Positions 30,527-59,432 are shown, counted from the stretch's first letter. The stretch is 64,000 nt of DNA from a virus (IMGVR_UViG_3300021387_000032:2463-66462); one strand, 5' to 3'. Translations and numbers: made by a program. The notes: generated by a model not told the origin, from the sequence alone.

Positions 30527-30552
30527 CATAAAAGAGACTGTAAATTTTGCGA
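30527..30552 (-). promoter_or_regulatory. Conserved phage promoter-like motif upstream of the nuclease-exonuclease-RNAP operon
   Basis: TCGCAAAATTTACAGTCTCTTTTATG matches the 18 cassette motifs. Confidence 0.75.
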
Positions 30553-30578
30553 ATTAAAAAATAGAGATGGAAGCAATA

Positions 30579-30842
30579 TCAATCGTCGTCTTCATCGTCG
30601 TCATCTTCGTCGTCGTCTTCTTCGTCGTCATCTTCGTCATAAATACGCTCATATGTTTCGTCGAACCAAGACTCGTATTCTTCCTCACTTGAAAATCCAT
30701 ACGCTTCTAATGGCATTTTGAAATTACAATCATCACACGCTAAAAACCGTCCATCAAAATTGTATTCATCGACGTTTTCATCGTCCCAGTACGACTCCAT
30801 GTTTCCACCACATTTTGGACAAACGTAATCACTCACAGCCAA
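30579..30842 (-). CDS. Zn-ribbon protein with very acidic C-terminus
   Basis: CPKC...CDDC, poly-D/E tail, TTG start with strong RBS. Confidence 0.7.
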   Translation of the reverse strand: MAVSDYVCPKCGGNMESYWDDENVDEYNFDGRFLACDDCNFKMPLEAYGFSSEEEYESWFDETYERIYDEDDDEEDDDEDDDDEDDD

Positions 30843-30874
30843 TCACTCCTTTCCGTAAAGTTCTTCTTGGTCTA

Positions 30875-30903
30875 AGTATATCCATAAAGTCACTAAACGT
30901 AAA
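30875..30903 (-). promoter_or_regulatory. sigma70/sigmaA-type promoter inside an RBS-sequestering inverted repeat
   Basis: TTTACG-N17-TATACT; inverted repeat 30841-30852 / 30901-30912. Confidence 0.6.
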
Positions 30904-30921
30904 GGAGTGATTTAAAAACCA

Positions 30922-31665
30922 TTACTCAGCTGACTCTGCCGTTCCCAATATCAATTCTTCGGAATACGGAAGTTCGTCAATCCATTTGCAAAACACATGC
31001 CACTCATCAAGCTTGTGATTCTTACGGGCATGAAAAATATTTGAAAGCACCTGATAGTTAAGATCAACCGTACGCTTCTGGTTGTAACTCGTCGGAAGCA
31101 GTTGAATCATCTGCCACCAGTATTCTTTCTTAAGTTTCGGATCTTCCTCTTGCAGATAGAATCTTCTCGCGATGTTAAGCCCATCAAGAATCTCCTGAAA
31201 AGTTTTATCGATCCATAGATTCTGATAGACCTTAATTTCCTCTCCAGTCTCATCGTCAATATCAATACGACGAACCCCGAGATGCTCGATCGAAAAGTCA
31301 GAAGCCTCAAATACCTTCGATCCGATCTTGTGCATGGTGCTGCAGGAATTCGCTACGGTACCGACTTTGTAAGTATCAAACTCTTTCCACCAGTAAAGAG
31401 GTGCTGTAATATCCATACTCACATGAATCATTCTTCTGAACTTCGAATGGTCATTTCCAGCTTTGCATAATTTCGCAGCGAGTTCTAAATCATTCGGACC
31501 GATTTTGTAATAATCTTTTGAGTCTTCTATGAACGCCCATTCATAATCATCGGTCGAGCTTTTATTCGAATAACTATCAGACTTTTCCCAACTGTTAAGA
31601 GGATTACGCATCCCACGAATTGCCGCTGGAAATCCATATATTTCAGTCTTCTCGATCAATATCAA
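30922..31665 (-). CDS. ThyX-like (FAD-dependent thymidylate synthase fold) protein
   Basis: H.KF.R.I, APLYWWKEFDTYKVG, QLLPTSY, RKNHKLDEW. Confidence 0.6.
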   Translation of the reverse strand: MILIEKTEIYGFPAAIRGMRNPLNSWEKSDSYSNKSSTDDYEWAFIEDSKDYYKIGPNDLELAAKLCKAGNDHSKFRRMIHVSMDITAPLYWWKEFDTYKVGTVANSCSTMHKIGSKVFEASDFSIEHLGVRRIDIDDETGEEIKVYQNLWIDKTFQEILDGLNIARRFYLQEEDPKLKKEYWWQMIQLLPTSYNQKRTVDLNYQVLSNIFHARKNHKLDEWHVFCKWIDELPYSEELILGTAESAE

Positions 31666-31733
31666 TATTCACTACCTCCTTGCTAAAATAACGGTTTAAA
31701 CTGAATCTTCCTGTACTAAATATTCTCAGATGT

Positions 31734-31841
31734 CCCTGAGACGCCCTGAGAGCCCCGTAGAGCGATTTTAATATCAATAAGGACTAATTACTCCAGAATG
31801 ATACTAAAACCGCTTAAAACGCAAATAAGGGCGTCTCAGGG
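31734..31841. repeat. Intergenic palindromic element, copy 2 of 3
   Basis: Perfect 14-bp terminal inverted repeat ccctgagacgccct / agggcgtctcaggg; inner gcgattttaa / ttaaaacgc. Confidence 0.75.
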
Positions 31842-31845
31842 CTAT

Positions 31846-32073
31846 TTACGCTTTTCTGCCCTCTCGTTCAAACTTTTTACAAAAGATTCCGCTTCGAAAA
31901 GGCTTATCTATACGTCTGTTGTTATTGTCCACAAGACACCTGTAAACCACCTTGCCCATACATCGCATAACGGCTTCTCTGTCTTTTGCATAAAACGCAC
32001 ACTGTCTACAACTTCGAAACATCGATTGGTCTTTCACTCCTTTCTGAATATCCATCACAATTTCAATATCCAT
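31846..32073 (-). CDS. Small Cys-containing hypothetical protein
   Basis: ORF in operon; CxxC. Confidence 0.6.
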   Translation of the reverse strand: MDIEIVMDIQKGVKDQSMFRSCRQCAFYAKDREAVMRCMGKVVYRCLVDNNNRRIDKPFRSGIFCKKFEREGRKA

Positions 32074-32375
32074 ACATCTGCCAGAATTACGTCAGTAGAG
32101 ACCTTAGTTCCGTCAACACATAAATTACTTGTTCCTTTGAGTTTAAGACTCATCCCGTAATTATCCACACCATTCACACCACCGAGTTTGTAAAGGGTTG
32201 AAACGAACAGATCCGTTTCAGGGTCACACTCCTTATGAGTATAGGCACACTCCTGAAGACGCATCAATGCTCGACCATATGCTTGAGGAAGGTCATAGTA
32301 AATTCCGACAACTTCCATCTCGCCGCTTTCGAGTCTAAAGATCACCACGTATGTATCTACGACCTGTGCTGTCAT
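32055..32375 (-). CDS. Hypothetical protein, paralog of the adjacent gene
   Basis: G.Y.D...AYGRAL..LQ..A is shared with 32392-32709. Confidence 0.7.
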   Translation of the reverse strand: MTAQVVDTYVVIFRLESGEMEVVGIYYDLPQAYGRALMRLQECAYTHKECDPETDLFVSTLYKLGGVNGVDNYGMSLKLKGTSNLCVDGTKVSTDVILADVWILKL

Positions 32376-32391
32376 ATCTGTTGTCTCCTCT

Positions 32392-32709
32392 CTACGCTGT
32401 TACGTTTGTAAGAACCCATACATCAGCAAGTTCTTTATCCATACCAAGCTCTAATTGGTTAGTGGTATTGCCTCTAAGCATTAAGCTCATCCCGAAATTA
32501 TCGCCGCCTTCCAATTCGTATATGGTGCTGAAATATAAATCTTCAGGCGCATATTCTTCGGTATGATCATCTGCGTAATTTTGAAGAGATAACAAAGCTC
32601 GTCCATAAGCCGCTTCATAGTCATCGTATACGCCATCAAGACACATCAAACCGGTATCGAGATGGAATACTACAGCGTACGTCATCTTACTTTCGACCTG
32701 TGCTGCCAT
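32392..32709 (-). CDS. Hypothetical protein, paralog of the adjacent gene
   Basis: Start MAAQVES overlaps the 3' end of dut. Confidence 0.7.
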   Translation of the reverse strand: MAAQVESKMTYAVVFHLDTGLMCLDGVYDDYEAAYGRALLSLQNYADDHTEEYAPEDLYFSTIYELEGGDNFGMSLMLRGNTTNQLELGMDKELADVWVLTNVTA

Positions 32710-33112
32710 ATCCGTTGTCTCCTCTCTCGCCGCCTGAAATTTCGTCAACAATTTCAATTTTTGCATATGAAACCGGAATCAAAGCAAGCTGTGTAATCTT
32801 GTCTCCCGGCTCAACCAGATAATCGTCGTCTGAACCATTGTAGAGACGGATTTTAATCTCGCCAGTAAACCCCTCGTCGATCAAACCTGTCGAAGTGATT
32901 TTGTCGTTGATGTTAAGTCCGCTCTTGGAAACTAAAAGACCGGCATACCCTTGTGGAATTTCCACATGCACACCGGTCGTAAAAACTTTTGAACCATTTG
33001 CAGGAACATATCCGAACATGTTGGAACGAATATCAATTCCACCGTCAGTATCATGTGCCCTTGTCGGAGCGAAAGCGCCTTCGTCTAATTTGAATCTGAT
33101 CACATTATCCAT
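32687..33112 (-). CDS. dut: Trimeric dUTPase
   Basis: GGIDI, KSGL, GLIDEGFTGEI, GDKITQL, RGDNGYGSTG. Confidence 0.92.
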   Translation of the reverse strand: MDNVIRFKLDEGAFAPTRAHDTDGGIDIRSNMFGYVPANGSKVFTTGVHVEIPQGYAGLLVSKSGLNINDKITSTGLIDEGFTGEIKIRLYNGSDDDYLVEPGDKITQLALIPVSYAKIEIVDEISGGERGDNGYGSTGRK

Positions 33113-33116
33113 AATA

Positions 33117-33506
33117 TCAATTATCTCCAATCCTAAACGTTTTATCTTCCAGTTCATCCTGCACAACAACCACCTTACCGTATCGGCTTGCGATTTCATA
33201 TTCGATCCTGCATCCTCTTGCTTGGTAATAATCCCATGTAAAATAAACAACATTCGCCTCAGCTAAAAGATCAATACTCTTTGCGAGATACTTGATCGGG
33301 ATATATCCAGGAGCAAGATCATCGACATTACCCTCAACTCTATCCTTAGCACCAGCTTCAACGTCATAATCCTCGAAGAAACTGTCGATCACTTCAAACT
33401 CGGTTCCAAGCTTGCTGCGAATATCCACGATTGCTTTGTTACGTGCCTCACGAATTTCCTCGTCGGTACGTCCGTTCATCGGTTGCGAAATAAAAACTTT
33501 AATCAT
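33117..33506 (-). CDS. DUF4406 / nucleoside 2-deoxyribosyltransferase-like protein
   Basis: KVFISQPMNG...ARGCRIEYEIA. Confidence 0.7.
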   Translation of the reverse strand: MIKVFISQPMNGRTDEEIREARNKAIVDIRSKLGTEFEVIDSFFEDYDVEAGAKDRVEGNVDDLAPGYIPIKYLAKSIDLLAEANVVYFTWDYYQARGCRIEYEIASRYGKVVVVQDELEDKTFRIGDN

Positions 33507-33577
33507 CCCAAAATACCTCCTTTTTCGGCTACTTGTGGGGAAATATAAAAACCTCACGAAAACATGATAAAATCGTC

Positions 33578-33930
33578 CGTGGCCAGATGCCCACTTTTAA
33601 ACCCAATTATTTTTCTATATAAATTAAAATTTATTTTTTTTCCATACGAAATATAAAAAAAAAGTGGCCATCTGGGTAAAACAGCCCGCAAACGTTGAAA
33701 TTCCAATGGGTTTCGGCGACAGCAAAAGTGGGCTTTGCCTGGCCACAAGGTGGGCAAATGGCCAGAAAAGTGGGCAAAAAGTCACGTTTTCGTGATATTT
33801 TCGAGAATTTTTCCGAATTTTTGACACTTTAATTTCGATGTCTCAAAAATGATTTTTTAGATATCGAATAACTGTTTTGCCCACCCTAAAGCCCACTTTT
33901 TGGCCAGATTTCAGACACAAAAGTGGGCAT
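33578..33930. repeat. Iteron-like repeat cluster, putative replication origin
   Basis: Multiple AAAGTGGGC / GCCCACTTT and TGGCCA copies in both orientations around AT-rich tracts; non-coding. Confidence 0.65.
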
Positions 33931-33937
33931 AAAAATA

Positions 33938-34255
33938 TCACTTTTTCGTGATGTTTTTCAGTGAATATCCACTATGTCTGAGTTCTGCAACCTGTTTGTT
34001 TATGGCATCGAGAACAACAGATGTCTTTGTGGTATAGAAAATATCTGCGATTTGTTCGATCAAATACATTTCATTTTCTGTAAGTCTGAGTGTCATTTGC
34101 TTACTTCTTTTATCCTCAGGTTTTGAATGTGGTCTCCCTCTTTTGGGTTTCGTTCTGTCCTTAGATTGACGTACTCTCTCCGTCGATATTTCATCCCAGC
34201 GTCCGCGTTGTTCCTCAGTCATTATTAGAAGCCTCCTCGATAAAATCAAAATCAC
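33938..34255 (-). CDS. Ribbon-helix-helix-like DNA-binding protein
   Basis: KRGRP...QMTLRLTENE. Confidence 0.55.
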   Translation of the reverse strand: MILILSRRLLIMTEEQRGRWDEISTERVRQSKDRTKPKRGRPHSKPEDKRSKQMTLRLTENEMYLIEQIADIFYTTKTSVVLDAINKQVAELRHSGYSLKNITKK

Positions 34256-34421
34256 GAGAAGATTTGCAAGCTTTCTTTAAAGCAACCCTGCCAAGAGTCG
34301 ATATAGAAATCCCAATCTCCTCAGATAGTTTTACAACATCCTGATACTCTTCTTCAGTAACACGAATTCTAATCAATCTCGTTCTATTATCTTTAGGATC
34401 TTTAGTATAATTGCCCATCAC
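34215..34421 (-). CDS. CopG / RHH-like DNA-binding protein
   Basis: IRIRVTEEE...ISISTLGR.AL. Confidence 0.6.
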   Translation of the reverse strand: MMGNYTKDPKDNRTRLIRIRVTEEEYQDVVKLSEEIGISISTLGRVALKKACKSSRDFDFIEEASNND

Positions 34422-36724
34422 TTATCCTCCTCAGAGTCCAATCCTTTCAAAAGTCCATTGCCAGCCCATTCACCAAAAAAGAGATTTCCGTCTTTCAAAG
34501 CGATCTGGTAGTGCTCATCAGTCGCTGCCTTATACGCAAGTATTCCTCCTTTGGAAAGACACCAGTGGTCATCAGGGATCGTAACGTATTCCTTCAAGAC
34601 TTTTTCTTCGGAGGCATCAATCTGATATCCGCCATCATCAGTTCTCAAGCGGTACCAGATCCGTCCATCGGAGGTCTTAACAACTCTCTCAATTTTAGCA
34701 GGAACGTAGATAACGTCGTCAATATCATAAATAGTATCCATGTGTTTACCCCTTTCGTCGTAGATCACATCATTTCACAAGTCAATTCACATCAATTCAT
34801 AAGACTCAATACCAAAGCCTTAAAACTACCCAGCAAAGTATTAAACGCCAAATATAAAATCGACCCGATCACTACTCCGGTAAAGATTTCACCAAGCAGC
34901 AAACCGAGTCGATAAGCTTTACTCTTCTTTTGTTCTTTCATTCGTATCCCTTGTCAGAATCACACCATCAAGATCGCTATACACAACCTCATTTCCGGCA
35001 GTTTCTCCAATAATATCAATACCGTCTTCACGAGCCATAGTAGCAAACAGCAAATATAAAAACCTAAGCGTCCGGTTAAGTCCTGAGATCTCCTCCGTAA
35101 TACGATCGAGCTTATCCATCAATAAATCGCTGTTTTGTTCTCTGGTATTAATAATCATACAAGTTACTCCTTTTTCTCAGAATTCTTATAGAATCTCACA
35201 AATGTACATGCGTAAAGTTTCAGAAATTCCCGAAAAGCCTTACTCATAGCCCAGTCCTCATTGATACAGATAACATCAAGCCATTCTTTTTCATAGTCAC
35301 TAAGTGAGATTGTAATGGGAATATATCGTTTTCCACATTTCTCATCCCAGGTTGTAACAGACGGCACACTGTTCTCAAGAATATCATTAAGTTCGCACTT
35401 CATCTTTTTCTCCTTACCAAAAATAGATATAACCTACTATTACTATAAACATCAGGAGTCCGATGACCACAAAATCCTTACGCATCTCCATAATTCCCAT
35501 GCTTAATATCCATCCGGTTGAAAAACCAAGAATTATACGTATTATTGCACTCACAAGTTCACACTTCATCGTCAATAATCACCTCGTTCTTAAAAGACAG
35601 ATCGTCCTCCGTAACGCCGGTCTCTTTCTCAAGAATATCAAGCATCTCGTCAACCGACACTTTGTTGCGAAACATGGTATCAGCATGAGCAGAAGCCTTT
35701 TTAAGAGTCCTAATAAGCCGCTCCTTACCGAATTTAAACTCATCCCTTAGCGCAAAGAGTACGGCAAGCATATCAATATTGTGCTGGTAGAGGATTGTCT
35801 CCATCACTCTGTCGTACAAAGCCTTGTTAAGAGCGTTTCTGGACTTTATTTCCTGTTCAGTAGATGTATACAGACGAATATCACTGCGAAGTTTAAACTG
35901 ATCCTTGTCTTTCTTCTTACCGGCTTTTCGTCCGTTTCCAGTAGGTCTGATTCTTCTATTCGTCATGCTCATCGGCATCCACCTTAGTTAAATTAAGCCC
36001 TTTTTCGAGTGTTTGATTCAGTTTTTCCAAGGAATGTGCAACATAAACACGGTCAGAATGTGCAACTTGCATATTTTCATTCACAACATCAATCAGGTTA
36101 GAGACACGCTTCGTAAGCATTTCAAGGTATACTGTAATACTATAAAGCGATACACTACTGCCATCTACACTACCATTCTGCGCAATCGCATTTTTAATAA
36201 CTTCTAACATAGTATTTGTAAGCTCATTTATTTCACGATTATTAATATCAGTGTACTTCTCAGACATGTGTTACTCCTTTTCTGTTTCTTGTTCTTTTAC
36301 TAATTTCTCAAATTTCTCCAATGCCACCAGTTTCTCCCTTATCGACTCGCCAGATGTAGTTTCATCTGTATCAATACCATTTTGGGCGAGCAGAATATCT
36401 AACAGCCCGGCAAGCAGTAAGAGTTTTCTTTCCTCAATTTGTCGAAGCATCCACTCATGTCCCAACGGCGAACCCTCGATAAGTTTGACAAATTCGTTTG
36501 CGTCTTTTACATAGCTCATAAGTTTACTCCTTTACTAATTTCTTTCCGCACATAGGACAATAATTTATACGAACCGATATGCCGTTCGAACCGCCTCCGT
36601 GAATATCATAGCCATACGCTACAAGTATTCCTGGGTAAAATATGGCAATCCCGTAATCGTCATTGTCCGGATAATCGTCTTTACAAGTCGTTAAATGTTT
36701 AGCGCCTTCGCAATATTTGCACAT
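34418..36724 (-). other. Run of small hypothetical genes (34418-34768, 34919-35158, 35164-35403, 35559-35978, 35956-36267, 36271-36519, 36524-36724)
   Basis: Tightly packed minus-strand ORFs, several with AAGGAG RBS. Confidence 0.65.
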
Positions 36725-36744
36725 AGCTTATAAGTTTACTCCTT

Positions 36745-37953
36745 TCATTTAATACGTTTCTTATAGACATTTGCAAATCGGCTCTCATTGAATTTCTTCT
36801 TTTTTCTCAGAGCCTTATCAATGCCCAGATCGATCCCGCTTTTGGTCTTAATGTGGTAGTAATATAAATCCGTATAAGGCGTATTGAGCCGGTCTATACG
36901 TCCCGCAGCCTGTTGCATGATCTTATACGAGTAGTTTTGCGAGAAGAATATAATGGTGTCTGTCGTAATGCAGTTCCATCCTTCTGCGCCTGCCGTGTAC
37001 TGTACGAAATAGACCCACGAGTCGCCTTTTGGAATATCCATATGCTTATGTCCATTCCACTCAGCAACCTTAACATCCTTACCAAAATCCAAGGCTCTCA
37101 GATAGTCTAATTCGTAATTATAATTGTAAAAGATGATAACCTTCCTGTGCTTGCTAAAAACCTCTAAAATCGCCTCTCGTCGCGTCTCAGAGGTATTCAC
37201 AACCCGTCTAAGTGCCTGACAGAATTCCGAGGCATTTACAAGGGGCCTTTCCTCCCAGATATGCCACCGGTCTCTCATCACACGACGGTAATCAGTAAGG
37301 TTGTATTTCACCCAGATATCAATATGGTGTGATTTGGTCTTTCGTTCAAATCGCATATCCACAAGTATCATGTCGCGATATCTGATAAGCCGTCCGGTAT
37401 TAAGGTATTTATCAACCGCAGGGTATTTCACAAAGCGTTTATAGACGACATGCTCCTGGATGAATTCGGTTCTGTTACGGTAAAATCCATTCGCAATAAA
37501 GACCGGTATATAATCCATCCAGGTGTCTCCGGGAGTGGCAGAGAGTAATATCCATTCGTTCTCCTTAGTAATTTTAAGAAACGATTTTACCCAGGCGCCA
37601 TTACCCACTACTCGCTGCTCATCAAATATAAAAAACGCATCTTTCACATCGGCGTACTTTTTAATGTTATTCCACGAGTCTATTACCACATCTTTTAACT
37701 TCATATGAAACACACGAATCTCGTCTTCCCACTCATGTGTATCTCTCTTTCTTGCAGTGGTGATGATGTAAAGCTTCTTGGGATCTTTCATCTTTACATA
37801 CTCTTTTGTATTTACTTTGCCCCCGTTCAAAATATAAAAATACGCAAGAGCGGTGCGAGATTTACCAGACCCCACACCGCCGCATAAAATAGATCCACTT
37901 GCAAGTTTGTTAATAGCATCCACCTGATATGGATACATGCTTATTCCGTTCAT
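36745..37953 (-). CDS. SF2 (SNF2-like) helicase
   Basis: YPYQ, GVGSGKS, FIFDE, LSATP, GAEGWN, QAAGRIDR. Confidence 0.9.
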   Translation of the reverse strand: MNGISMYPYQVDAINKLASGSILCGGVGSGKSRTALAYFYILNGGKVNTKEYVKMKDPKKLYIITTARKRDTHEWEDEIRVFHMKLKDVVIDSWNNIKKYADVKDAFFIFDEQRVVGNGAWVKSFLKITKENEWILLSATPGDTWMDYIPVFIANGFYRNRTEFIQEHVVYKRFVKYPAVDKYLNTGRLIRYRDMILVDMRFERKTKSHHIDIWVKYNLTDYRRVMRDRWHIWEERPLVNASEFCQALRRVVNTSETRREAILEVFSKHRKVIIFYNYNYELDYLRALDFGKDVKVAEWNGHKHMDIPKGDSWVYFVQYTAGAEGWNCITTDTIIFFSQNYSYKIMQQAAGRIDRLNTPYTDLYYYHIKTKSGIDLGIDKALRKKKKFNESRFANVYKKRIK

Positions 37954-38321
37954 ACAAGTTTGTCATAAAATTCAGTAATTACAAGTTCAATCAATACGGT
38001 AAATAATAGTGTCCCTCCAGTAATCCCAAGACCGATGCAGCTTCCTTTGAACGCTGTAGAACATCCTGAGACAAGAGGTTCAACGCCAATCATATGAGAC
38101 ACTGCTCCAATAAACAGTAAGGTGAGACTGAGCGAGCCAAGAAGTATGAAAACGAATATAAAAAACAATATGACATCGAGCAGTATCTTTTCAAAAGTTT
38201 TCAGCATCCGTCGTTTATCAATTTTCATAAGTCGCTCCTTAGAATGGCAGATCGTCTTCGTCCATTTCTTCTTCAATGTCAGAACCGAAGTTGGCGTATT
38301 TCTCAGCGAGGAAGTCCTCAC
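37950..38321 (-). CDS. Hypothetical membrane protein (true start probably MKIDKRR)
   Basis: Two hydrophobic segments. Confidence 0.5.
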   Translation of the reverse strand: MRTSSLRNTPTSVLTLKKKWTKTICHSKERLMKIDKRRMLKTFEKILLDVILFFIFVFILLGSLSLTLLFIGAVSHMIGVEPLVSGCSTAFKGSCIGLGITGGTLLFTVLIELVITEFYDKLV

Positions 38322-38781
38322 GAATCTTCACATACATTGACTTCAGATAAGCCTTCACTCCTGATTTACCATTGACTTCCCAGTTATAAGGACGGATAAT
38401 GAGATCAACGCTTTCGATATCCACGTCATCAAGCTCTCCTATCGTATCCTCATCCAAAAGAGTCTTGTTGGTCTTGGTGAGAAGGTATACTTTAGGCGGC
38501 TGGAATTTGTAAGACGCTACTACCTGAATATAACAGAGGGGTTTATCTCCCTCCTCTCTTGGTGGCAGGATCTTTACATTCCAACCGTCATCTTTCATTC
38601 TTTCGGCAAACACCTCGTCATCAATTACCACGCAGAAGTTACGATTGCCTGCACGGTTGTAAGGAGTTTCCTCACCTTTGAAGTTGCGAAACATGATACG
38701 CACATCTTCAAATACCACATTATCAGTTACTTTGTAATCAGCTTTTCTTTTGCTCTGTTTTGCTGCTGCTCTGGCTGCCAT
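38239..38781 (-). CDS. Single-stranded DNA-binding protein (phage type)
   Basis: FRNF.G...N..G.RNF core; acidic tail ending DDLPF; adjacent to the polymerase. Confidence 0.75.
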   Translation of the reverse strand: MAARAAAKQSKRKADYKVTDNVVFEDVRIMFRNFKGEETPYNRAGNRNFCVVIDDEVFAERMKDDGWNVKILPPREEGDKPLCYIQVVASYKFQPPKVYLLTKTNKTLLDEDTIGELDDVDIESVDLIIRPYNWEVNGKSGVKAYLKSMYVKIREDFLAEKYANFGSDIEEEMDEDDLPF

Positions 38782-38797
38782 AATATCCATCCTTTCT

Positions 38798-46303: not shown

Positions 46304-46382
46304 TTTTTCTACCTCCGTAAATATAAACATTAACAATCTTGGAAATCGTTCCATAATAGCGTCTGTATTTTTTGCGATAGCC

Positions 46383-47242: not shown

Positions 47243-47275
47243 AAAGAGAGACCTATGAATCTCATAGATCTCTCC
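47243..47275 (-). terminator. Cassette hairpin (near-identical copies at ~47882 and ~49473)
   Basis: GGAGAGATCTATGAGATTCATAGGTCTCTCTTT. Confidence 0.75.
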
Positions 47276-47285
47276 GTTTTGCGTC

Positions 47286-47465: not shown

Positions 47466-47580
47466 TTCAATCTCCTTTCACGTCGTCTTTAAAATATAAA
47501 ATGGAAACGCTCTTCCATAATAGCAATTGTAAATTTTGCGTTTGACATTGATTAGAAAGAAAAGAGAGCCTGTTAGACTC

Positions 47581-47796
47581 TCATATGAACCTCTTAACCA
47601 GTTCACCAACTGTATTAGTGTCGGTCTCAAGATCCAGTTCAAGGTGAACCTTAACTCGTCCACCATCCTCGACGGAGACATCTATATCTCCAATCGTAGG
47701 ATCAATGTCGATATCAAGATTCTTCTTGATCTGTTTCTTAATGATCCAACCAATAATATTTTTTGTGAATCCAGTTCTTAATTTCATAATATCCAT
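47581..47796 (-). CDS. Cassette 3 ORF
   Basis: Lies between motif and hairpin. Confidence 0.7.
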   Translation of the reverse strand: MDIMKLRTGFTKNIIGWIIKKQIKKNLDIDIDPTIGDIDVSVEDGGRVKVHLELDLETDTNTVGELVKRFI

Positions 47797-47921
47797 TTCC
47801 TACCTCTCTTTTCTTCTTAAAAATTCGGTAATTTCTTCCATAAAAGAACCTGCATTTTTTGCGAATTTTGAGGCGAAAAACAAAGAGAGACCTATGAATC
47901 TCATAGATCTCTCCGTCCAAG

Positions 47922-48158: not shown

Positions 48159-48222
48159 TTTTTTACTCCTTTCAGTAAACAACAAATATCATTTGCATAA
48201 TAGGGGTTGTATTTTTTGCGAT

Positions 48223-49008: not shown

Positions 49009-49076
49009 TAATTCCTCCTTTCAGAAAATATAAAAAGAAGAGACCCGTACAACTTTGCACGAATCTCCTCCAAAAC

Positions 49077-49406: not shown

Positions 49407-49524
49407 TAGTCACTCCTTTCTAAAACTATGAAATAAATTCTCATAATAGCGTCTGTATTTTTTACGAAAAACAAAGAGAGACCTATGAATCTCATAAGTC
49501 TCTCCCCGATACGATACTTTTGAA

Positions 49525-49731: not shown

Positions 49732-49810
49732 GTTACCTCCTGTGTTCAAACTGTACCGTCCATAATAGTAACTGTAAAATTTGCTTGAATATCCACAGGA
49801 AGAACTCAGT

Positions 49811-52800: not shown

Positions 52801-53442
52801 AAGATTTAAACTATATACAGTCGTAATGAGTGTGTTGGCGTAATCGATCCTCCGATCCGCAATAAAATAATCAGTAGCGTCGCTCAACTTTTCAATTCTA
52901 AGAATTTTTGCTTCTGGTGATAACGTAAATTCAAACGATTCTTCAAGGCCCTCTAACCGAAACTCTTCGTTTTCACACCACTCTTTCCATCCGTATTTGG
53001 CATCTATTGGAGACGCCCATAAGCCGTTTGGTTTATCAAGCCTGCGATATTTCTTGTCACTGGTTACAGCTCGTTCAAGTCTTTGTTTATCGTAGTGGTT
53101 GGAACCGAAATGTATATAGCGATTGTTATTCATATTTACTCCTTTCGAAAAATATCTATTCATAATATTCTGCTAATTTAATCACTTTTTATCTAACTTA
53201 CTTTTTTTGTCAAATTCCTCGTCATCTTTACAATACATGGATTCTATAAACCAACAAAATACGGGATACTGTTTGTTCAATTCGATTGTTTTTATCATAA
53301 CTTCATAAGATGGATTTTCGCGTTCAACATTGGCTATTGCTTTTGTGGCAAGATTTTCGTCATTGTAAATTCCCACTAATTGAACGCTTGTTCCATAATC
53401 TTCCGTGTAAGCATCGACATATACTAAATATAATTTTTCCAT
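49811..53442 (-). other. Operon of ~11 small early genes, including HTH proteins (50002-50334, 51204-51497, 51534-51944), a conserved WG...IITEADRS protein (50349-50633) and a stand-alone DUF6353 C-terminal domain (52251-52649)
   Basis: Overlapping start/stop codons; HTH-like patterns. Confidence 0.65.
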
Positions 53443-53508
53443 CTCTTTACTCCTTTCAAAAATATAAAAAAGAGAGACTCATGATTTCTCACAAGTCTCT
53501 CCGTAGGG

Positions 53509-53763
53509 TTATGCCCCGATTACTCCTAACCTTTTAAGTTCGATAAGTGCCACCTTGAAATTATCTAAATTTTCTCCTTTAAGACCGCCCTTACTTTTTG
53601 AATTATCTACCGCCTGCAAAGCATGATTCAGCCAAATCAGAGCATCAATTACATCAACGTACTCTTTATTGTTGAATCGGTCTTTACCTTCGTCCGATAA
53701 CTTCTTTTCCTTTTCCATCAGCTGGTCCTGGAGTTCTTTTAAAGTTTTCAGATTTACAGTCAT
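53509..53763 (-). CDS. Cassette 7 ORF
   Basis: RBS GGAGGTG. Confidence 0.7.
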   Translation of the reverse strand: MTVNLKTLKELQDQLMEKEKKLSDEGKDRFNNKEYVDVIDALIWLNHALQAVDNSKSKGGLKGENLDNFKVALIELKRLGVIGA

Positions 53764-53888
53764 AGTCACACCTCCGTCAAAAAATATAAAAATAATACAG
53801 GACTCTTCCTGCATAATAGAAACTGTATTTTTTGCGAACGGAGAAAATCAAAAGGATTTGCAACGCTTACGCAAATCCTCGTATTACC

Positions 53889-54161
53889 TTATGATAACTT
53901 AGTCGGCGCTATAGAAATTACAATTGCTCTACCGATGTCGATCAAAATATCATCATTCATATCGAAATGAAACTCGTAGGAATGATAGTTATCCTTTATC
54001 GTCTGTACGAGTGTTGATTGCTCGTTCTCAGCCAATACAGTGACCACTATCCTTCTTGTGAGTTTCGATTCGAGTATGATAATATGATACTCATCTAACT
54101 CAGTAGTTATCATTGTTTCTGTTACTCCAACGTGCTTTCTTGGTAATTCGAAAAATTTCAT
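53889..54161 (-). CDS. Cassette 8 ORF, paralog of 57089-57349
   Basis: Shared leader DNA and protein pattern. Confidence 0.7.
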   Translation of the reverse strand: MKFFELPRKHVGVTETMITTELDEYHIIILESKLTRRIVVTVLAENEQSTLVQTIKDNYHSYEFHFDMNDDILIDIGRAIVISIAPTKLS

Positions 54162-54269
54162 AATTTCCTCCTTTTGATTACCACAAAATATCTTTTGTCG
54201 TAAAAGAGGCTGTAAATTATGCGAAAATACCCTAAAACACTCTAAAATACCCTAAAATCAGCCAAAATC

Positions 54270-54370
54270 GCCGAGAAGCCACTTAATAGCCCCATAGAGC
54301 GATTTATGTGCTTTTTCGACCCGTAGGTTCTGTTTTAAATTAACTCGCCTTAAATCGCCTCTCAGAGCCT
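54270..54370. repeat. Intergenic palindromic element, copy 3 of 3
   Basis: gccccatagagcgattta ... taaatcgcctctcag. Confidence 0.6.
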
Positions 54371-54470
54371 CGTTTTTCAACTACTTCCCTAAATTTTGCA
54401 TGATTTCCGGCAAAAACAAAGAGAACCTGCAAAATATCACAGATTCTCTACGATTTTTCATGTTACTTTT

Positions 54471-54740
54471 TTATTTCTCTTCGCACAATTTCGAAACCGC
54501 TGCCACTATCATATTATAAATAATACAGATTTCTTCATCGTCCAGAGAATCAACCGTTTTTCTGATAATAGCGCCTGCTTCTTTATAGTAGTCTTCAACG
54601 TTTTCGTCAAAAACTCTTTCCAAAAGAATACGGCACACAATATGATCGCTGGTAAAACTCTCTTTCATATACTTCAGAAATGTTTCGTTTACCATAATAT
54701 AGGTAGACGTTGCTTCTAATGTGTCTTTGAGATTTTTCAT
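54471..54740 (-). CDS. Cassette 9 ORF
   Basis: RBS; cassette context. Confidence 0.7.
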   Translation of the reverse strand: MKNLKDTLEATSTYIMVNETFLKYMKESFTSDHIVCRILLERVFDENVEDYYKEAGAIIRKTVDSLDDEEICIIYNMIVAAVSKLCEEK

Positions 54741-54845
54741 TTTTTACTCCTTTCAAATAGCATGAAATAATTCTCATAATAGAAGCTGTATTATTTGCGA
54801 AAAAGAAAAGAGAACCTGCAAAATATCACAGATTCTCCTGTCTGG

Positions 54846-55103
54846 CTAATGCTTTCTTCTCTCAGCTCTTATTTTCTGTACCATTCTCCTCCACTCAATA
54901 TATGGTTTACCTTTCAAAGAACCCGCCTTATGTTTTGAAATAAGCAAATATCCTTCCGGGCATTTTCTGAAATAGAAATCCTTTATTTGTAGAACTTTGC
55001 AATGTTCTAACATTGTTTTGGCTCTCTTCATTTCCTCTTTATCCCTAAGTGTGATATAATACCTATTACATCTCAGTCCAAGTCTTTCTCCAGTAGTTTT
55101 CAT
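54846..55103 (-). CDS. Cassette 10 ORF (basic)
   Basis: RBS; cassette context. Confidence 0.7.
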   Translation of the reverse strand: MKTTGERLGLRCNRYYITLRDKEEMKRAKTMLEHCKVLQIKDFYFRKCPEGYLLISKHKAGSLKGKPYIEWRRMVQKIRAERRKH

Positions 55104-55226
55104 ATCAAGCTCCTTTTAAAATATAACTGTAACTATTAGCCATAAAAGAGCTTGTAAAATCTGCGAAAGACTGGACAAAACCAAAGAGAGCCTGTAGACT
55201 CTGCTACGGGCTCTCCGGTTAGATTT

Positions 55227-55448
55227 CTACTTAATTACTGTCTCAGTGCCATCCCGTGCAATAAACTTATTTTCGATTTCGAAATTGACTCCTTTCTTGA
55301 TGATTCGATTTGTTGCTACGGTCGTGCCAATGATTGATCCAATAAGTCCTGCTAAGCAGCACCATGCTCCAATACCGGCCATTCCTACTAATAAAATACG
55401 ATCATCACTTTCCATAGAGTTCCATTTCTTCTTCAACTTCTTAATCAT
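55227..55448 (-). CDS. Cassette 11 ORF, single TM
   Basis: RBS; cassette context. Confidence 0.7.
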   Translation of the reverse strand: MIKKLKKKWNSMESDDRILLVGMAGIGAWCCLAGLIGSIIGTTVATNRIIKKGVNFEIENKFIARDGTETVIK

Positions 55449-55510
55449 TTTTGACTCCTTTCAGTAAAGTAAATATAACCTTTCATAATAGGAGCTGTAT
55501 TATTTGCGGA

Positions 55511-55735
55511 TCATTCGCGAGTCTCTACCCTGACAACCACTTTCTTGGATGTCTTGAGTTCACGCATATCCTTGGATAGTTCGAGCATCAGATAGTCATT
55601 TCCTTCTTCATCTGGGTATATCTTGATGACTCCCACATCCTTAACACCTTTTTTTCGTCCTAAAATATAACCAAAGCCGAACCATACAATCACCACTGCG
55701 ACGTATATAATCCCTGTAAGTGCTACGTTACTCAT
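55511..55735 (-). CDS. Small membrane protein
   Basis: N-terminal TM. Confidence 0.65.
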   Translation of the reverse strand: MSNVALTGIIYVAVVIVWFGFGYILGRKKGVKDVGVIKIYPDEEGNDYLMLELSKDMRELKTSKKVVVRVETRE

Positions 55736-55736
55736 A

Positions 55737-56069
55737 TCATGCTCCTTTGTGTGCTATAAGCTGAGCTGCGCGGTTCTTGATCTTCTCATCATATTTGAAG
55801 TCAAAGCCCGTGCTCCCGTCAAATCCGTCAAATTCCTTGTAATATGGTGCTTTCTTTGAAATATCAGGAAATTCCTGTGAAAGCCATACCAGTTCCTTAG
55901 CCCACTGAGACCACTGAGCGTCACTTACAACACTATCGTCCATCTCGTAGTAAATATAACTATGTACCAGGATCTGACGGCGTCTCTGGGAGATCTTTGC
56001 AAGTATTGCTTCGTCCCGATCCTCATAAATATCATTGTCAAGTAGTTTGTCTAAATCGAGTTTTGTCAT
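55737..56069 (-). CDS. Stand-alone NAD-dependent DNA ligase N-terminal (domain Ia)-like protein
   Basis: HSYIYYEMDDSVVSDAQW resembles LigA H...YY..D.P.ISDAEYD. Confidence 0.6.
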   Translation of the reverse strand: MTKLDLDKLLDNDIYEDRDEAILAKISQRRRQILVHSYIYYEMDDSVVSDAQWSQWAKELVWLSQEFPDISKKAPYYKEFDGFDGSTGFDFKYDEKIKNRAAQLIAHKGA

Positions 56070-56182
56070 TTTCTTCCTCCGGGAATTTTCCCTAATACTA
56101 AAATATCACCTGTTACGGTCTCCTGCGTACGGCAAAAACAAAAAGAGACCCGTGAGTTGTCTCACAAGTCTCCCAGAAAATA

Positions 56183-56419
56183 TCATTCGTATCTTACTAC
56201 AAGTCTGTGCCCTTCTTCAAAATCTTTATAAAGTGCCCCATATTCTTTGGATTCGTTTGCAAGCCATTTGAGATGCTTCTCTATAGTGTCATGTTTTATC
56301 GCTCTTAATAGAAGCTTTCCTCCGGCCCATATACCCATGAGTCCAAATATTTTATAGAGCGCATATTTTCCGTTCTCTTGTTCCATCGCACGTTTTCTTT
56401 CCTCTTGTTTTGTAGTCAT
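56183..56419 (-). CDS. Cassette 12 ORF
   Basis: RBS AAGGAGG. Confidence 0.7.
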   Translation of the reverse strand: MTTKQEERKRAMEQENGKYALYKIFGLMGIWAGGKLLLRAIKHDTIEKHLKWLANESKEYGALYKDFEEGHRLVVRYE

Positions 56420-56518
56420 GCTAACCTCCTTGTTAATTAGAATGATAATGTTCCATAAGAGTGTTTGTAAATTTTGCTAATCAGGTGGACTACTCACATG
56501 CGAAATAATTTGATAATT

Positions 56519-56701
56519 CTAATAATATATTTCACGTAACCACACTCTGTTATCGCCGTCTGGTCCTTGTACGTCAACAAGTTCGTGTTCGTCACAGATA
56601 AGATCGTGAGAAATCATTACTATTGCTTCCTTTGGTAATTCAGTTAGTAGTTCAATTAATTCTTTTACTGTCATGGGTTTCCTCCTAAAATAGTATGACA
56701 A
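56519..56701 (-). CDS. Small hypothetical protein (MTVKELIELL type; true start probably internal)
   Basis: Common phage motif; RBS GGAGG. Confidence 0.6.
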   Translation of the reverse strand: MSYYFRRKPMTVKELIELLTELPKEAIVMISHDLICDEHELVDVQGPDGDNRVWLREIYY

Positions 56702-56762
56702 GAATCATTTGCTAAAAGAAAAAGAGACCTACAAAATCGTAGATCTCTTTCGCTGCTGCGGA

Positions 56763-56987
56763 TCAGCTATGCACGGAACACCAAGTGGTTACCAAATCAT
56801 CGTCATCCGGATGATGGTTTCCGATTCTACGGTTGTACATACACGTTCCTTCAGTGCCATAGCCATGAGGACAAGGCATTTTACACCTTGAGTACTCACT
56901 GTCCATGTCTGAAACACGGATGTATTCTCCGATTTTCTCATTGAAAACCGTTCCGGCGTAGATGTAGATATCTTTTCCGTTTATCAT
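56763..56987 (-). CDS. Cassette 13 ORF, Cys/His-rich
   Basis: RBS AAAGGAGGTGA. Confidence 0.7.
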   Translation of the reverse strand: MINGKDIYIYAGTVFNEKIGEYIRVSDMDSEYSRCKMPCPHGYGTEGTCMYNRRIGNHHPDDDDLVTTWCSVHS

Positions 56988-57088
56988 AATCTGATCACCT
57001 CCTTTCGTCCATTAAAGAGCCTGCAAATTTTGCGGATAGAGAAAAGCCAAAAGGAGCTGCTATGAATATAACAACTCCTTATAAGTCC

Positions 57089-57349
57089 TTAGATCTTCTC
57101 GATTTCGATCAAGATTTCTCTCTCATACACAAATATTCTTATAGTGTCTTTTTCGAATTCGAATGTAAAAACGTTTCCATAATGCTTGCCGATCTTGTCC
57201 GAGAGGGTCGATACCTCTGTCGGTCCAAATATCGTGACCATCACGCGATCGTACAATTCGCTCGAATCAGATATCACTATCCAATATGTTCTGTCTTCCA
57301 TTGAAATCTCGACTTCACGAGTGTTTTTTGGAACTTTAATTGTGTTCAT
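57089..57349 (-). CDS. Cassette 14 ORF
   Basis: RBS; paralog of the cassette 8 ORF. Confidence 0.7.
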   Translation of the reverse strand: MNTIKVPKNTREVEISMEDRTYWIVISDSSELYDRVMVTIFGPTEVSTLSDKIGKHYGNVFTFEFEKDTIRIFVYEREILIEIEKI

Positions 57350-57399
57350 TTTAGTCCTCCTTTTGACTACAAAATATCTTTGTCGTAAAAGGACCTGTA

Positions 57400-57807
57400 T
57401 TATTTGCGAGCCCTACTCAAAAGCCAAAAGAAGCGTCTATATAAGTCGTAATATTTGTCTTTTCCACACGGTACAGGACTTCTTGCATTAAGCTTGTCGA
57501 ATGATAGTCCTTCCGTAACTCCGGTTAAAATATAACTTCCTATGACCTGGTCTGTACGCTTGGCAGCCTCTTCTATCATCTGAATACGGTCTGAGTAAAA
57601 CATCCGTTTAAGAGCTGTCTTTTCAGTACTGCTTGAGGTTGTTTTCTCACCTGGGGTTATTATTGATGAAGTATTAATCCCATCCAAAATATCACGCTTT
57701 TTCTTCCACAAATTGTATTGCAGACAGAAATGCTTAAGCTCGTAATACCTGTGCTTGTCGATCCAGTAAGGGTTCTTCTTTGAGACTTCTGCTCGAATAT
57801 CACTCAT
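57400..57807 (-). CDS. Conserved putative transcriptional regulator (ArpU/RinA-like)
   Basis: KHRYYELKHFCLQY...YRRFFWLL. Confidence 0.55.
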   Translation of the reverse strand: MSDIRAEVSKKNPYWIDKHRYYELKHFCLQYNLWKKKRDILDGINTSSIITPGEKTTSSSTEKTALKRMFYSDRIQMIEEAAKRTDQVIGSYILTGVTEGLSFDKLNARSPVPCGKDKYYDLYRRFFWLLSRARK

Positions 57808-58055
57808 CGTCCTTCTCCTTTCCAAAAGAATCCTGTTTCCTCGTACAAAAGCTTCGGGGAAATATAAAAATTGATGCGCCCGAATCTGCTGTCGATCTGA
57901 TCTACGCTTGTGACGAGTTCTCCGTTCCTGGTAGCTTTCCCAATCGGCAGCCAGCCAGCAATGATTCCGGCTCTTACCCACGAAGCGTCTTTACCATATA
58001 CCTTTGCAACAACCGATACCGGCACTGAACCTTGTGTGAATTCCTGCATTTGCAT
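57804..58055 (-). CDS. Winged-HTH excisionase / Cro-like protein
   Basis: VPVSVVAKVYGKDASWVRAGII. Confidence 0.55.
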   Translation of the reverse strand: MQMQEFTQGSVPVSVVAKVYGKDASWVRAGIIAGWLPIGKATRNGELVTSVDQIDSRFGRINFYISPKLLYEETGFFWKGEGR

Positions 58056-58140
58056 TTACCTCCTTCTAAGAGGCATTGTATAACAGTAATCAGAAAATAT
58101 AAAAAAGAAACAGGTGGGGTTTAGTTAAGGACAAAAAGAA

Positions 58141-58211
58141 AAGAAATTGTTGGGATTCGAACCCAAGTCTCATAACCGAAGTTATGCGTGTTCCCACTAC
58201 ACCACATTCTT
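58141..58211 (-). ncRNA. tRNA-like RNA with a C(UUCG)G tetraloop in place of the anticodon loop (cassette 15)
   Basis: D arm GTGT-AGTGGGA-ACAC; arm CATAAC-TTCG-GTTATG; T arm TTGGG-TTCGAAT-CCCAA; imperfect acceptor stem; no encoded CCA. Confidence 0.75.
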
Positions 58212-58287
58212 TCCATAATAGAACCTGCAAATTTTGCGAATTTTAGAAAAGAAAAAGAGCCCTACAAAGTTGTAGAGCTCCGTTCTC

Positions 58288-58536
58288 TCAAACGCCCCAT
58301 ATAGCGTATCTGTAAGGGACGCAGAAATCATGGATATCTTTCTGAATCTTTTTCAGCTTTCTTCTGGTTGCGAAGAAAGTGATTTTATAGCTTGTCCCAT
58401 CCTCTGTCATACGGGCTAATTCAACCCCGTTATAATAAAGGATCATACAAACCTTATCCATCTCTTCTTCATCAACCCAGATGTTGCTGTCCATATCTTC
58501 CCAATATCTTTTTAATTCTGCTATTAATTTACCCAT
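58288..58536 (-). CDS. Cassette 16 ORF
   Basis: RBS AGGAGG. Confidence 0.7.
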   Translation of the reverse strand: MGKLIAELKRYWEDMDSNIWVDEEEMDKVCMILYYNGVELARMTEDGTSYKITFFATRRKLKKIQKDIHDFCVPYRYAIWGV

Positions 58537-58628
58537 TTCATACCTCCTATTTATCTGGTTATCGTTTGCATAAGAGACTCTGTATTTTTTGCGAAGAATA
58601 TCGCTTGAATAAAAAAGAAAAGAGGCGG

Positions 58629-58772
58629 TTAACCTCTCTTCCTAAAGTCTTCGCTAACTTTTCCAATAATACACAAACATGCTATAGTTGCCGATAGATA
58701 GACCATAAAATATCCGGCTGTTTTAAGTCCTAATTTCATGATCCACCACAACACTTTAAACATTGTTCTCAT
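58629..58772 (-). CDS. Cassette 17 ORF (47 aa, hydrophobic, not in ORF track)
   Basis: MRTMFKVLWWIMKLGLKTAGYF..., RBS GAAAGGAG. Confidence 0.65.
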   Translation of the reverse strand: MRTMFKVLWWIMKLGLKTAGYFMVYLSATIACLCIIGKVSEDFRKRG

Positions 58773-58847
58773 ATTAATCACTCCTTTCCATTAAAGAGTC
58801 TGTATCTTTTGCGGAAAAATATCCCGGACAAAAAGAAAAGAGAAGCA

Positions 58848-59075
58848 TTAAAGCTCCTCCACTCTTCTCCAATACGGATCTCTTGTTGCGTATTCAATCC
58901 GGTATTTTGCTATTCTTCCACAGTCCTTAGCTGCGGTTGTCGCTACACTTGCAACACCGATGATACCATTGAGCACCGCGTAAGATTCCATAATCTTCGC
59001 AGCGCCGTAGTTCACGGTTGCTTTGAATGCGATTCCGCCGATTTCTTTTCCTGCTTCTTTAATAATATTCAACAT
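58848..59075 (-). CDS. Cassette 18 ORF
   Basis: RBS GGAGG. Confidence 0.7.
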   Translation of the reverse strand: MLNIIKEAGKEIGGIAFKATVNYGAAKIMESYAVLNGIIGVASVATTAAKDCGRIAKYRIEYATRDPYWRRVEEL

Positions 59076-59096
59076 TTTTCTACCTCCAAATATTTA

Positions 59097-59432
59097 TCAA
59101 AAGACGTATTTTTTCCATAACAGAACTTGCAATTTTTGCGAATTTTTCCACGTTCTCATGGTGAGTTCACAAGGATAATCCTCATAACCCAAAATATCTG
59201 GAGTTATTATGCCTTCTATCACACCTTGTATCAATTCTGCTTCGTAGCGCATGTACGGAATAATATAATCAGGAAGTTCCCGGTGTAATTTGTTACAGTT
59301 TTTGCACTGCCATCTTTGTACCAGAATCTCTCTTGTTTCCCGATTCTTAGTCCTGACTAATCGTTTTACCTTGTCATACTTTCTTAAATATCCACCGCAG
59401 ACTGGGCATTGTTTTTCTCCTTCTCTAATCAT
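59097..59432 (-). CDS. DUF6431-like Zn-ribbon protein
   Basis: CPVC...RWQCKNC..LHRELPD..PY.RY. Confidence 0.7.
   Translation of the reverse strand: MIREGEKQCPVCGGYLRKYDKVKRLVRTKNRETREILVQRWQCKNCNKLHRELPDYIIPYMRYEAELIQGVIEGIITPDILGYEDYPCELTMRTWKNSQKLQVLLWKKYVF

Follow-up and report, generated by a model that had tools for sequence, protein, structure and literature searches.

A compact DNA motif that is repeated 19 times on one strand of a gut phage genome is very probably a promoter, as judged from its sequence and its setting, and it is probably read by an RNA polymerase of 922 amino acids (aa) that the phage itself encodes. The stretch we analysed (the window, 64,000 nucleotides (nt), IMGVR_UViG_3300021387_000032) comprises bases 2463-66462 of a 66,462-base-pair (bp) viral genome with terminal repeats; its G+C content is 40% and nearly all of its genes lie on the minus strand. 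Eighteen copies of the motif form an array among small genes, and the remaining one stands before an operon that includes the polymerase gene. The polymerase was judged the best candidate for the reader by elimination of the other candidates and by analogy with the polymerases of phage P23-45.

The original prediction had given the motif a length of 26 nt, which is right; its consensus, typed literally, has 25 nt and gave 0 matches with up to 3 mismatches allowed, because the stated length requires four W between the first two boxes. The corrected motif, TCGCAA-WWWW-TACAR-NNN-CTWTTATG (search pattern TCGCAAWWWWTACARNNNCTWTTATG, up to 3 mismatches allowed), occurred 19 times, on the minus strand throughout, and spanned 30527-59141 exactly as had been claimed, with 0.01 copies expected by chance and none of 100 shuffled sequences reaching 19. 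Positions G3, A5, A7, T11, C13, A14, C19, T20, T22, A24 and G26 were invariant across the copies, and conservation extended 1 base upstream and about 4 bases downstream, giving an extended form of ~30 nt, tTCGCAAAwwwTACAG-nyn-CTnTTATG-raa. TCGCAA alone was hardly enriched in the window (53 occurrences vs 37.6 expected). When a 31-nt weight matrix was built from the 19 copies, these scored 30-44 bits, and no further site above 6 bits was found on either strand of the window (the maximum over 20 shuffled windows was 13.1 bits); the entire 66,462-bp genome contained the same 19 copies only. The motif set is closed and sharply bounded, with 18 copies at 46.3-59.1 kilobases (kb) and one at 30.5 kb.

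The surroundings of the copies were also as predicted (Table 1): 18 of the 19 are followed at 17-76 nt by a start codon with a Shine-Dalgarno-like sequence before it, the remaining copy precedes a tRNA-like gene, and the single copy outside the array (copy 19) precedes the endonuclease-exonuclease-polymerase genes. The open reading frames (ORFs) downstream of the copies are mostly small (47-111 aa). More than half of the copies (10/19) start 4-24 nt past a terminator-like hairpin followed by a T-run, a gap that leaves no space for another promoter. Terminator-like sites were enriched in the array region as a whole (32 vs 11.2 expected) and were mostly on the minus strand. These hairpins (45.9-58.9 kb, minus strand) make up a repeat family, GGAGAGAyCT...AGGTCTCTC, of which the related phage FP_oengus has its own version, GAGCTGTGGAGAAATCTGCGGCTC. 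Because there is no copy between copy 18 and 30552, the replication genes are downstream of copy 18. At the other side the array is flanked by a tyrosine integrase gene on the opposite strand (59468-60616), at the prophage end, indicating that the phage is temperate.

Table 1. Copies of the motif in the window, the tRNA-like gene, and the genes of the polymerase operon.
Feature	Position	Strand	Remarks
Motif copy 1	59116..59141	-	Nearest the integrase; 75-aa ORF starts 41 nt downstream
Motif copy 2	58789..58814	-	47-aa ORF 17 nt downstream; preceded by hairpin 58839-58860
Motif copy 3	58569..58594	-	82-aa ORF 33 nt downstream; preceded by hairpin 58615-58643
Motif copy 4	58214..58239	-	Last G 2-3 nt upstream of tRNA-like gene; preceded by hairpin 58256-58281
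tRNA-like gene	58141..58212	-	Shortened anticodon loop; begins 2-3 nt past final G of motif copy 4
Motif copy 5	57384..57409	-	86-aa ORF 35 nt downstream
Motif copy 6	57010..57035	-	74-aa ORF 23 nt downstream; preceded by hairpin 57051-57080
Motif copy 7	56454..56479	-	78-aa ORF 35 nt downstream
Motif copy 8	55484..55509	-	73-aa ORF 36 nt downstream
Motif copy 9	55141..55166	-	85-aa ORF 38 nt downstream; preceded by hairpin 55187-55202
Motif copy 10	54775..54800	-	89-aa ORF 35 nt downstream; preceded by hairpin 54808-54839
Motif copy 11	54199..54224	-	90-aa ORF 38 nt downstream
Motif copy 12	53812..53837	-	84-aa ORF 49 nt downstream; preceded by hairpin 53852-53880
Motif copy 13	49761..49786	-	Weakest copy, 30 bits; 68-aa ORF 30 nt downstream
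Motif copy 14	49442..49467	-	109-aa ORF 36 nt downstream; preceded by hairpin 49472-49508
Motif copy 15	48196..48221	-	78-aa ORF 38 nt downstream
Motif copy 16	47839..47864	-	71-aa ORF 43 nt downstream; preceded by hairpin 47884-47914
Motif copy 17	47516..47541	-	59-aa ORF 51 nt downstream; preceded by hairpin 47564-47582
Motif copy 18	46352..46377	-	End of array; 111-aa ORF 49 nt downstream
Motif copy 19	30527..30552	-	76 nt upstream of endonuclease-like gene; final copy upstream of late genes
Endonuclease-like gene	30158..30451	-	97 aa from start codon after Shine-Dalgarno sequence; conserved in all four reference phages; no Pfam family
Exonuclease gene	29626..30186	-	186 aa; PHROG 3953
RNA polymerase candidate, single-chain two-barrel	26861..29629	-	922 aa; PHROG 4291 over full length, E=0

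We considered whether such a motif could be something other than a promoter, either the boundary of a recombination cassette, as in integrons, or a signal at the RNA level (a processing site, or a leader on read-through transcripts). The uniformity of the array units, whose cargo differs between phages, and the homology for exchange that repeated promoter and hairpin sequences would provide are compatible with the former, and the read-through implied by 7 of the 17 strong hairpins, which have no motif after them, with the latter. Both nevertheless seem very improbable. The motif is asymmetric without any inverted repeat, it is strictly co-oriented with the genes and placed after hairpin and T-run terminators, and it also stands before the tRNA-like gene and, outside the array, before the polymerase operon (in 62 of 66 relatives, see below). 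Apart from an ordinary tyrosine integrase at the prophage end there is no recombinase, and a signal acting on RNA would need a separate promoter, of which none was seen in scans for sigma-70-like sites.

The motif was then compared with four reference phages, FP_oengus, Circum, Scap1 and P162, in whose whole genomes repeated intergenic words were sought independently of the window motif; the initial de novo top seeds in some genomes were ribosome-binding sites or terminators, and the per-phage matrices were refined afterwards. All four share with the window the gene order small-gene array, replication genes, endonuclease-exonuclease-polymerase and late genes, including a small conserved gene that is also syntenic beside the endonuclease, exonuclease and polymerase genes, and in all four a repeated intergenic motif was found in the register of the window motif. 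It was always in the sense orientation: 15 sense and 0 antisense copies, one of them doubtful, in FP_oengus (Faecalibacterium; gaCGCGAAAaa..CA...T.CTTTATGga), 9 and 0 in Circum (Arthrobacter; tCGCGtaAAtTACA.GGGcTATAATg), 6 and 0 in Scap1 (Streptomyces, phage genome of 61% G+C; TCGCAagtTtT.C..gc.tTaTagTGAGAC) and 12 and 0 in P162 (Lactococcus; TTTTACAtaCCCTATAATGaaa, without the CGC box). C13, T22 and T25 are common to all five phages, CGC (positions 2-4), T11, A14, T20 and A24 to four of the five, and G26 predominates in all five. A copy precedes the polymerase block in the window phage, FP_oengus, Circum, P162 and MT835495, the last of which encodes the nearest polymerase in GenBank (52% identity); Scap1 showed no clear copy before the operon, just a weak look-alike near 38.97 kb. 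MT835495 has just 2 real copies, which both precede the polymerase gene, and its right half consists of large plus-strand ORFs with no small-gene array, so that it is uninformative on arrays. Two further matrix matches in this record were rejected, being located in coding repeats.

The spacing within the motif is not that of a sigma-70 promoter. As the original prediction had pointed out, 13 nt separate TCGCAA from the TATTAT-like box, outside the 16-19 nt between sigma-70 -35 and -10 elements; no hexamer is conserved at 16-18 nt before the 3' box in the 19 window copies, and no TG extension adjoins the box. A likeness of the 3' box to a -10 hexamer is confined to some of the phages. If positions 20-25 are taken as such a hexamer, 9 of the 19 window copies and 0 of the 15 FP_oengus copies have A at what would be -11, and 2/15 of the latter have T at what would be -12; T(-7) is conserved. 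The motif fails sigma-70 geometry. Sites resembling the sigma-70 consensus were not enriched either, at 58 vs 52.5 expected in the region 45.5-64 kb and 15 vs 23.4 in the region 24-34 kb around the polymerase operon; among them are a site matching 9 of 12 positions at 30903-30875 and one matching 10 of 12 at 59234-59206.

The tRNA-like genes constrain where transcription can begin. FP_oengus also has one (2935-3006, plus strand, fetched-sequence coordinates), which likewise has a shortened anticodon loop and begins 1-2 nt past the final G of a motif copy; ARAGORN reports both as 'tRNA-???', and the Rfam tRNA model matches them with 45.9 and 47.9 bits. In the window, a strong terminator lies directly upstream of motif copy 4 and its tRNA-like gene. 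With the gene 1-3 nt past the motif and a terminator upstream, the RNA would be expected to start within or at the very end of the motif, whereas a sigma-70-type start ~7 nt past the box would land inside the acceptor stem of the tRNA. The position of the tRNA-like genes in the two phages suggests a start at the motif end.

These constraints bear on the idea that the motif is read by the host enzyme carrying its primary sigma factor, with CTnTTATG in the role of a -10-like element, the upstream boxes acting as UP-like or spacer elements and the phage enzyme working late only, as YonO does. In most phages the early genes are indeed transcribed by the host, and YonO, the polymerase of phage SPbeta, transcribes late genes only according to the available part of its report (PMC5467207). 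We regard this explanation as improbable, given that the -35 element and the TG extension are missing, that the most critical bases of the putative -10 element vary as described, and that in two phages a tRNA-like gene follows within 1-3 nt of the box.

The co-occurrence of motif and polymerase gene, which the original prediction had proposed as a check, was borne out by scans of relatives in both directions. A pooled family matrix was applied to 80 IMG/VR loci around polymerase homologues (48-64% identity) and gave 127 sense vs 2 antisense matches in 1.2 Mb. Among the 66 loci with at least 1500 nt upstream of the gene, 62 had a copy 907-1137 nt (median 912) before the polymerase gene, representing 24 distinct sequences; in the other four no copy was found within 2 kb upstream. 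In the reverse test a degenerate DNA pattern retrieved at least 120 viral stretches, and among the records examined, the first 50 of 80 listed, 42 encode the polymerase (E <=1e-10), a proportion that was 15/16 among records at least 90% complete; of the 8 records in which no polymerase was found, one is 92% complete. The exact window-type motif was seen in just 2 other IMG/VR contigs, with 1 copy each.

Bacterial and archaeal genomes gave a different picture. A 36-bit pattern searched in 185,579 species genomes (596 Gb) returned 26 scattered single matches, near the ~17 expected, so that no host genome uses the motif repeatedly. The boxes outside the -10-like part are kept across phages of different host phyla, which indicates a phage-encoded reader. 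Both results also count against the host's own sigma factor: the CGC and TACA boxes have been kept between phages of Actinomycetota and Bacillota hosts, and more than one copy was present in no bacterial genome scanned.

The best candidate for such a reader is the 922-aa product of the operon behind copy 19. A search of PHROGs annotates it as 'RNA-dependent RNA polymerase' (RdRP), and Pfam detects helix-turn-helix (HTH) families at residues 883-922 and near 96-123 together with a weak RdRP match; the HTH modules are put at about residues 46-124 and 883-922. The metal-binding DxDGD loop (SGADFDGDT, residues 535-543) and a RYPH element were invariant in all 23 aligned sequences. An AlphaFold model (pLDDT 75.5, pTM 0.58) matched by Foldseek the Neurospora polymerase QDE-1 (7y7t, E 1.9e-7, probability 1.0), a P23-45-type phage polymerase (8f72, E 3.9e-5) and plant RDR2. 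No T7-type RNA_pol family was found in the Pfam search, and a sequence search of the Protein Data Bank (PDB) returned no polymerase. By its model, the protein is a YonO/QDE-1-like two-barrel polymerase candidate and not T7-like, and the invariant DxDGD and RYPH residues with the fold match argue for an active enzyme. The original prediction had envisaged an orthogonal expression system around a 922-aa RNA polymerase; a polymerase-type protein is what the gene is predicted to encode, whereas the T7 type that this wording implied gave way to a two-barrel fold with HTH modules. By tblastn, homologues occur in 250 GenBank phage records, none of which reaches 60% identity; the hosts include Arthrobacter, Gordonia, Streptomyces, Lactococcus and Faecalibacterium. 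Identity to named phages is 39-52%, and most records label the protein merely as HTH DNA-binding.

That label leads to another explanation, in which the host core polymerase is redirected to the motif by a phage sigma-like factor or activator, either one of the conserved proteins or the 922-aa HTH protein itself acting as a DNA-binding factor. Phage T4 offers a precedent, its middle promoters working by sigma appropriation with a box 12-13 nt from the -10 element. Several conserved proteins have no assigned function (83-aa and 115-aa proteins encoded just after the polymerase gene, three DUF6353 paralogues, a 186-aa and a 212-aa protein), and the HTH matches that come near threshold in the 922-aa protein include sigma-region-4-like ones, in keeping with its usual GenBank annotation. 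We think this unlikely all the same, since DxDGD and RYPH are invariant in 23/23 sequences in the fold of two-barrel polymerases, since the tRNA-like genes would put the start too near the box for a sigma-type open complex, and since a factor for the earliest genes would face the same bootstrapping problem as a polymerase. Among the genes conserved in all four reference phages we found no sigma factor and no known regulator, nor was a sigma-70 region 2 or other sigma signature present in any conserved protein.

If the phage polymerase is the reader, the following scheme can be proposed. Its N- and C-terminal HTH modules would read the upstream boxes CGCAAA and TACAG, the DNA would open in the T/A-rich CTnTTATG box, and the RNA would begin at, or no more than ~2 bases from, the invariant final G. 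The 18 array copies would drive short early units, each made of promoter, ribosome-binding site, small gene and hairpin, with one unit giving the tRNA-like RNA. Copy 19 would drive the endonuclease-exonuclease-polymerase block and thereby exert positive feedback on the polymerase gene; the conservation of this copy across the family makes such an autoregulatory loop plausible. As copy 19 is the last promoter of its class before ~26 kb of late genes, these may be reached by read-through. In cos-ended relatives the genome ends lie between the polymerase block and the late genes, which makes the polymerase-operon copy the nearest upstream promoter of the class to the late genes once the DNA is circular.

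Several points weigh against this scheme. Circum and P162 carry an exact TATAAT in the 3' box, a possible -10 element for host sigma-A; the cassettes end in a hairpin and T-run, the classic terminator of bacterial RNA polymerase; and the array is separated by 16-29 kb from the polymerase gene downstream, which itself stands behind a member of the same promoter class. These three also speak for transcription by the host's primary sigma factor. The seven strong minus-strand hairpins of the array that are followed by a gene with its ribosome-binding site and no motif mean that some read-through must occur. YonO, a distant relative and the only one to have been characterised, serves late genes from one start site (available part of PMC5467207); in the window matrix scan the late genes had no motif copy, and the motif marks early units and the polymerase operon. 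The structure model is moderate and its TM scores are low, 0.2-0.3 (~0.3 for QDE-1). The co-occurrence in relatives is confounded by common descent, because motif and gene both mark one lineage.

With the polymerase gene behind a promoter of its own class, the first polymerase molecules need another source, which could be weak host transcription from sigma-70-like sites such as those at 30903-30875 and 59234-59206, or protein delivered with the DNA. The N-terminal peptide of the polymerase, HYG..RRSGRYPWGSG (..LMHYGVKRRSGRYPWGSG), is invariant in 23 polymerases and predicted to be disordered, and it may be a packaging or targeting tag, a hint of delivery with the DNA. Peptides similar to the polymerase N-terminus (29576-29629, minus strand) begin two basic proteins whose genes lie between those of terminase and portal (peptides at 22380-22440 and 21650-21711, minus strand), the shared form being L.H[HY]G..G.KWG/RSGR.RRY-like. 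The same pairing was seen in Circum (gp7) and Scap1 (gp06), where the protein is encoded just upstream of the terminase. Against Pfam DUF7211 the shared peptide scored 23.9 and 17.3 bits, under the 27-bit cut-off.

A more far-reaching combination of these elements can be imagined, although we hold it to be doubtful: the polymerase would be self-contained, with built-in sigma-like HTH modules and no host factor, and would enter with the DNA, its N-terminal peptide, a feature that head-module proteins of phages from both phyla have too, serving for packaging. Early transcription and, through read-through that begins at the operon copy, late transcription would then be independent of host promoter specificity, and in temperate members the choice between lysis and lysogeny would be set by a self-activating loop, not by a repressor-operator pair. 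If true, a portable self-contained system would explain how one lineage infects Actinomycetota and Bacillota.

Compared with known promoters, the motif resembles those of sigma-70/sigma-A in having a T/A-rich box shortly upstream of genes, with TATAAT in two relatives, and differs in its 13-nt spacer, the missing -35 element, the non-conserved -11 and a start apparently forced to within ~3 nt of the box. It is like T7 and SP6 promoters in being compact (~23-30 bp), asymmetric and multi-copy, in seeming to include the start, and in having a T/A-rich opening box followed by purines, whereas the T7/SP6 polymerase is unrelated to the two-barrel candidate of the window. The Scap1 version of the promoter (22652-26868, fetched-sequence coordinates) ends in ...TTATAGTGAGAC / TTATAGTGAGACccctac, resembling the T7/SP6 core, TATAG.GAGA. 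This likeness would be convergence, the polymerases being unrelated.

The closest parallel is phage P23-45, in which, in the part of the report available, multi-copy motifs before pre-early and early genes were shown to be promoters of the two-barrel polymerases gp96 (virion) and gp64 (non-virion) (bioRxiv 10.1101/2022.12.01.518664; structures PDB 8f72 and 8f5m). The comparative logic is the same, relatives with the enzyme having the motif. In P23-45, however, starts and occupancy were measured, the motifs are AT-rich and GC-rich, and the first polymerase, a fusion with the tape measure protein, is injected, as far as the available text describes; the window phage has one polymerase with HTH modules and a promoter predicted from sequence.

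YonO is a single-chain two-barrel DNA-dependent RNA polymerase that transcribes late genes from one start site, and its promoter is undetermined in the available part of the report (PMC5467207). SPbeta, a Firmicutes phage, is temperate like the window phage, and its polymerase gene too lies just upstream of the late genes (same source, same part). SPbeta was not among the 250 tblastn matches to the window polymerase, and the family matrix had no match in the SPbeta yonN-yonK gap. In 40 kb of SPbeta that we examined, the word TTTATGA(A/G)GG has only two copies, both in this gap and on the late-gene (minus) strand, at ~10443 and ~10600 of the locus; they correspond to TCATTTATGA(A/G)GGT at NC_001884.1 ~60,443 and 60,600 and lie within a 20-nt repeat, TAATnnTCATTTATGArGGT. 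Both copies look similar to the 3' box of the window motif, and the gap is where the YonO start was mapped; the published start (Bacillus subtilis 168 position 2225998) could not be placed.

The protein family itself has been described. Koert et al. (bioRxiv 10.1101/842583) named an 'HTH-RdRP-HTH' protein as the hallmark of a phage supercluster that spans Actinobacteria and Firmicutes hosts and proposed a polymerase activity for it from sequence, according to the accessible part of the preprint. This protein (PHROG 4291; phage 1706 group, FP_oengus, Arthrobacter cluster AM, Streptomyces BI) belongs to the same family as the window polymerase. In that accessible part the word 'promoter' occurs 0 times, and neither the motif nor a link between it and the gene is described; in a paper on Arthrobacter phages (PMC5513430), 'promoter', 'motif' and 'RNA polymerase' each occur 0 times. 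Our literature search found no published description of the motif and no published assay of any PHROG 4291 member. Phage polymerases that have a compact multi-copy promoter to themselves are a known kind of system (T7, N4, P23-45); what is new, as far as literature searches show, is a defined promoter candidate for the HTH-bearing two-barrel PHROG 4291 family, across phages of two phyla and with a conserved copy before the polymerase operon.

Single-chain two-barrel polymerases such as YonO are taken to model the ancestral form of all cellular RNA polymerases, and how they find promoters is a long-standing question. PHROG 4291 is common, occurring in many gut viral contigs besides the 250 GenBank phage records. 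A sharply defined signal of ~30 bp is available, with 19 natural variants in the window genome and further versions from four phage-host pairs that can be cultured, so that one protein and short templates would suffice to test promoter recognition. Should the enzyme prove self-sufficient, it would be a candidate orthogonal expression tool for Gram-positive hosts.

Some further features of the polymerase operon and the late region were noted. The leader after the polymerase-operon copy (30452-30526, minus strand) opens with a purine run, as do those of FP_oengus (27708-27765) and MT835495 (~633-670; both fetched-sequence coordinates), and in these three phages the purine runs GAGAGAAAC, GGGGGGAATAG and GAGGGAGAGGG can pair with a downstream segment that is followed by a T-run. 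This pairing may be an attenuator of polymerase and late expression; a simple terminator scan of the leaders behind polymerase-operon copies was positive in 1 of 5. Upstream of the FP_oengus polymerase operon there is an 871-nt gap (26895-27765, fetched-sequence coordinates) with four TTGGCCAAAAA(C)-like repeats and sigma-70-like hexamers, a possible host promoter region under repressor control that would feed the operon. The window gap 25679-26148 (minus strand), between the conserved 83-aa and 115-aa genes, is the counterpart of the cos ends in Circum, P162 and Scap1, and what looks like a structured leader there may be a packaging or genome-end region. The late genes of the window contain a strand-polar word, TCAAAATGG, that is frequent too in FP_oengus (TCAAAATG, 22 times) and MT835495 (AATCAAAATG, 8 times), and FP_oengus has another polar word, TGATATTT, found 36 times on the coding strand vs 2 times on the other, within and between genes.

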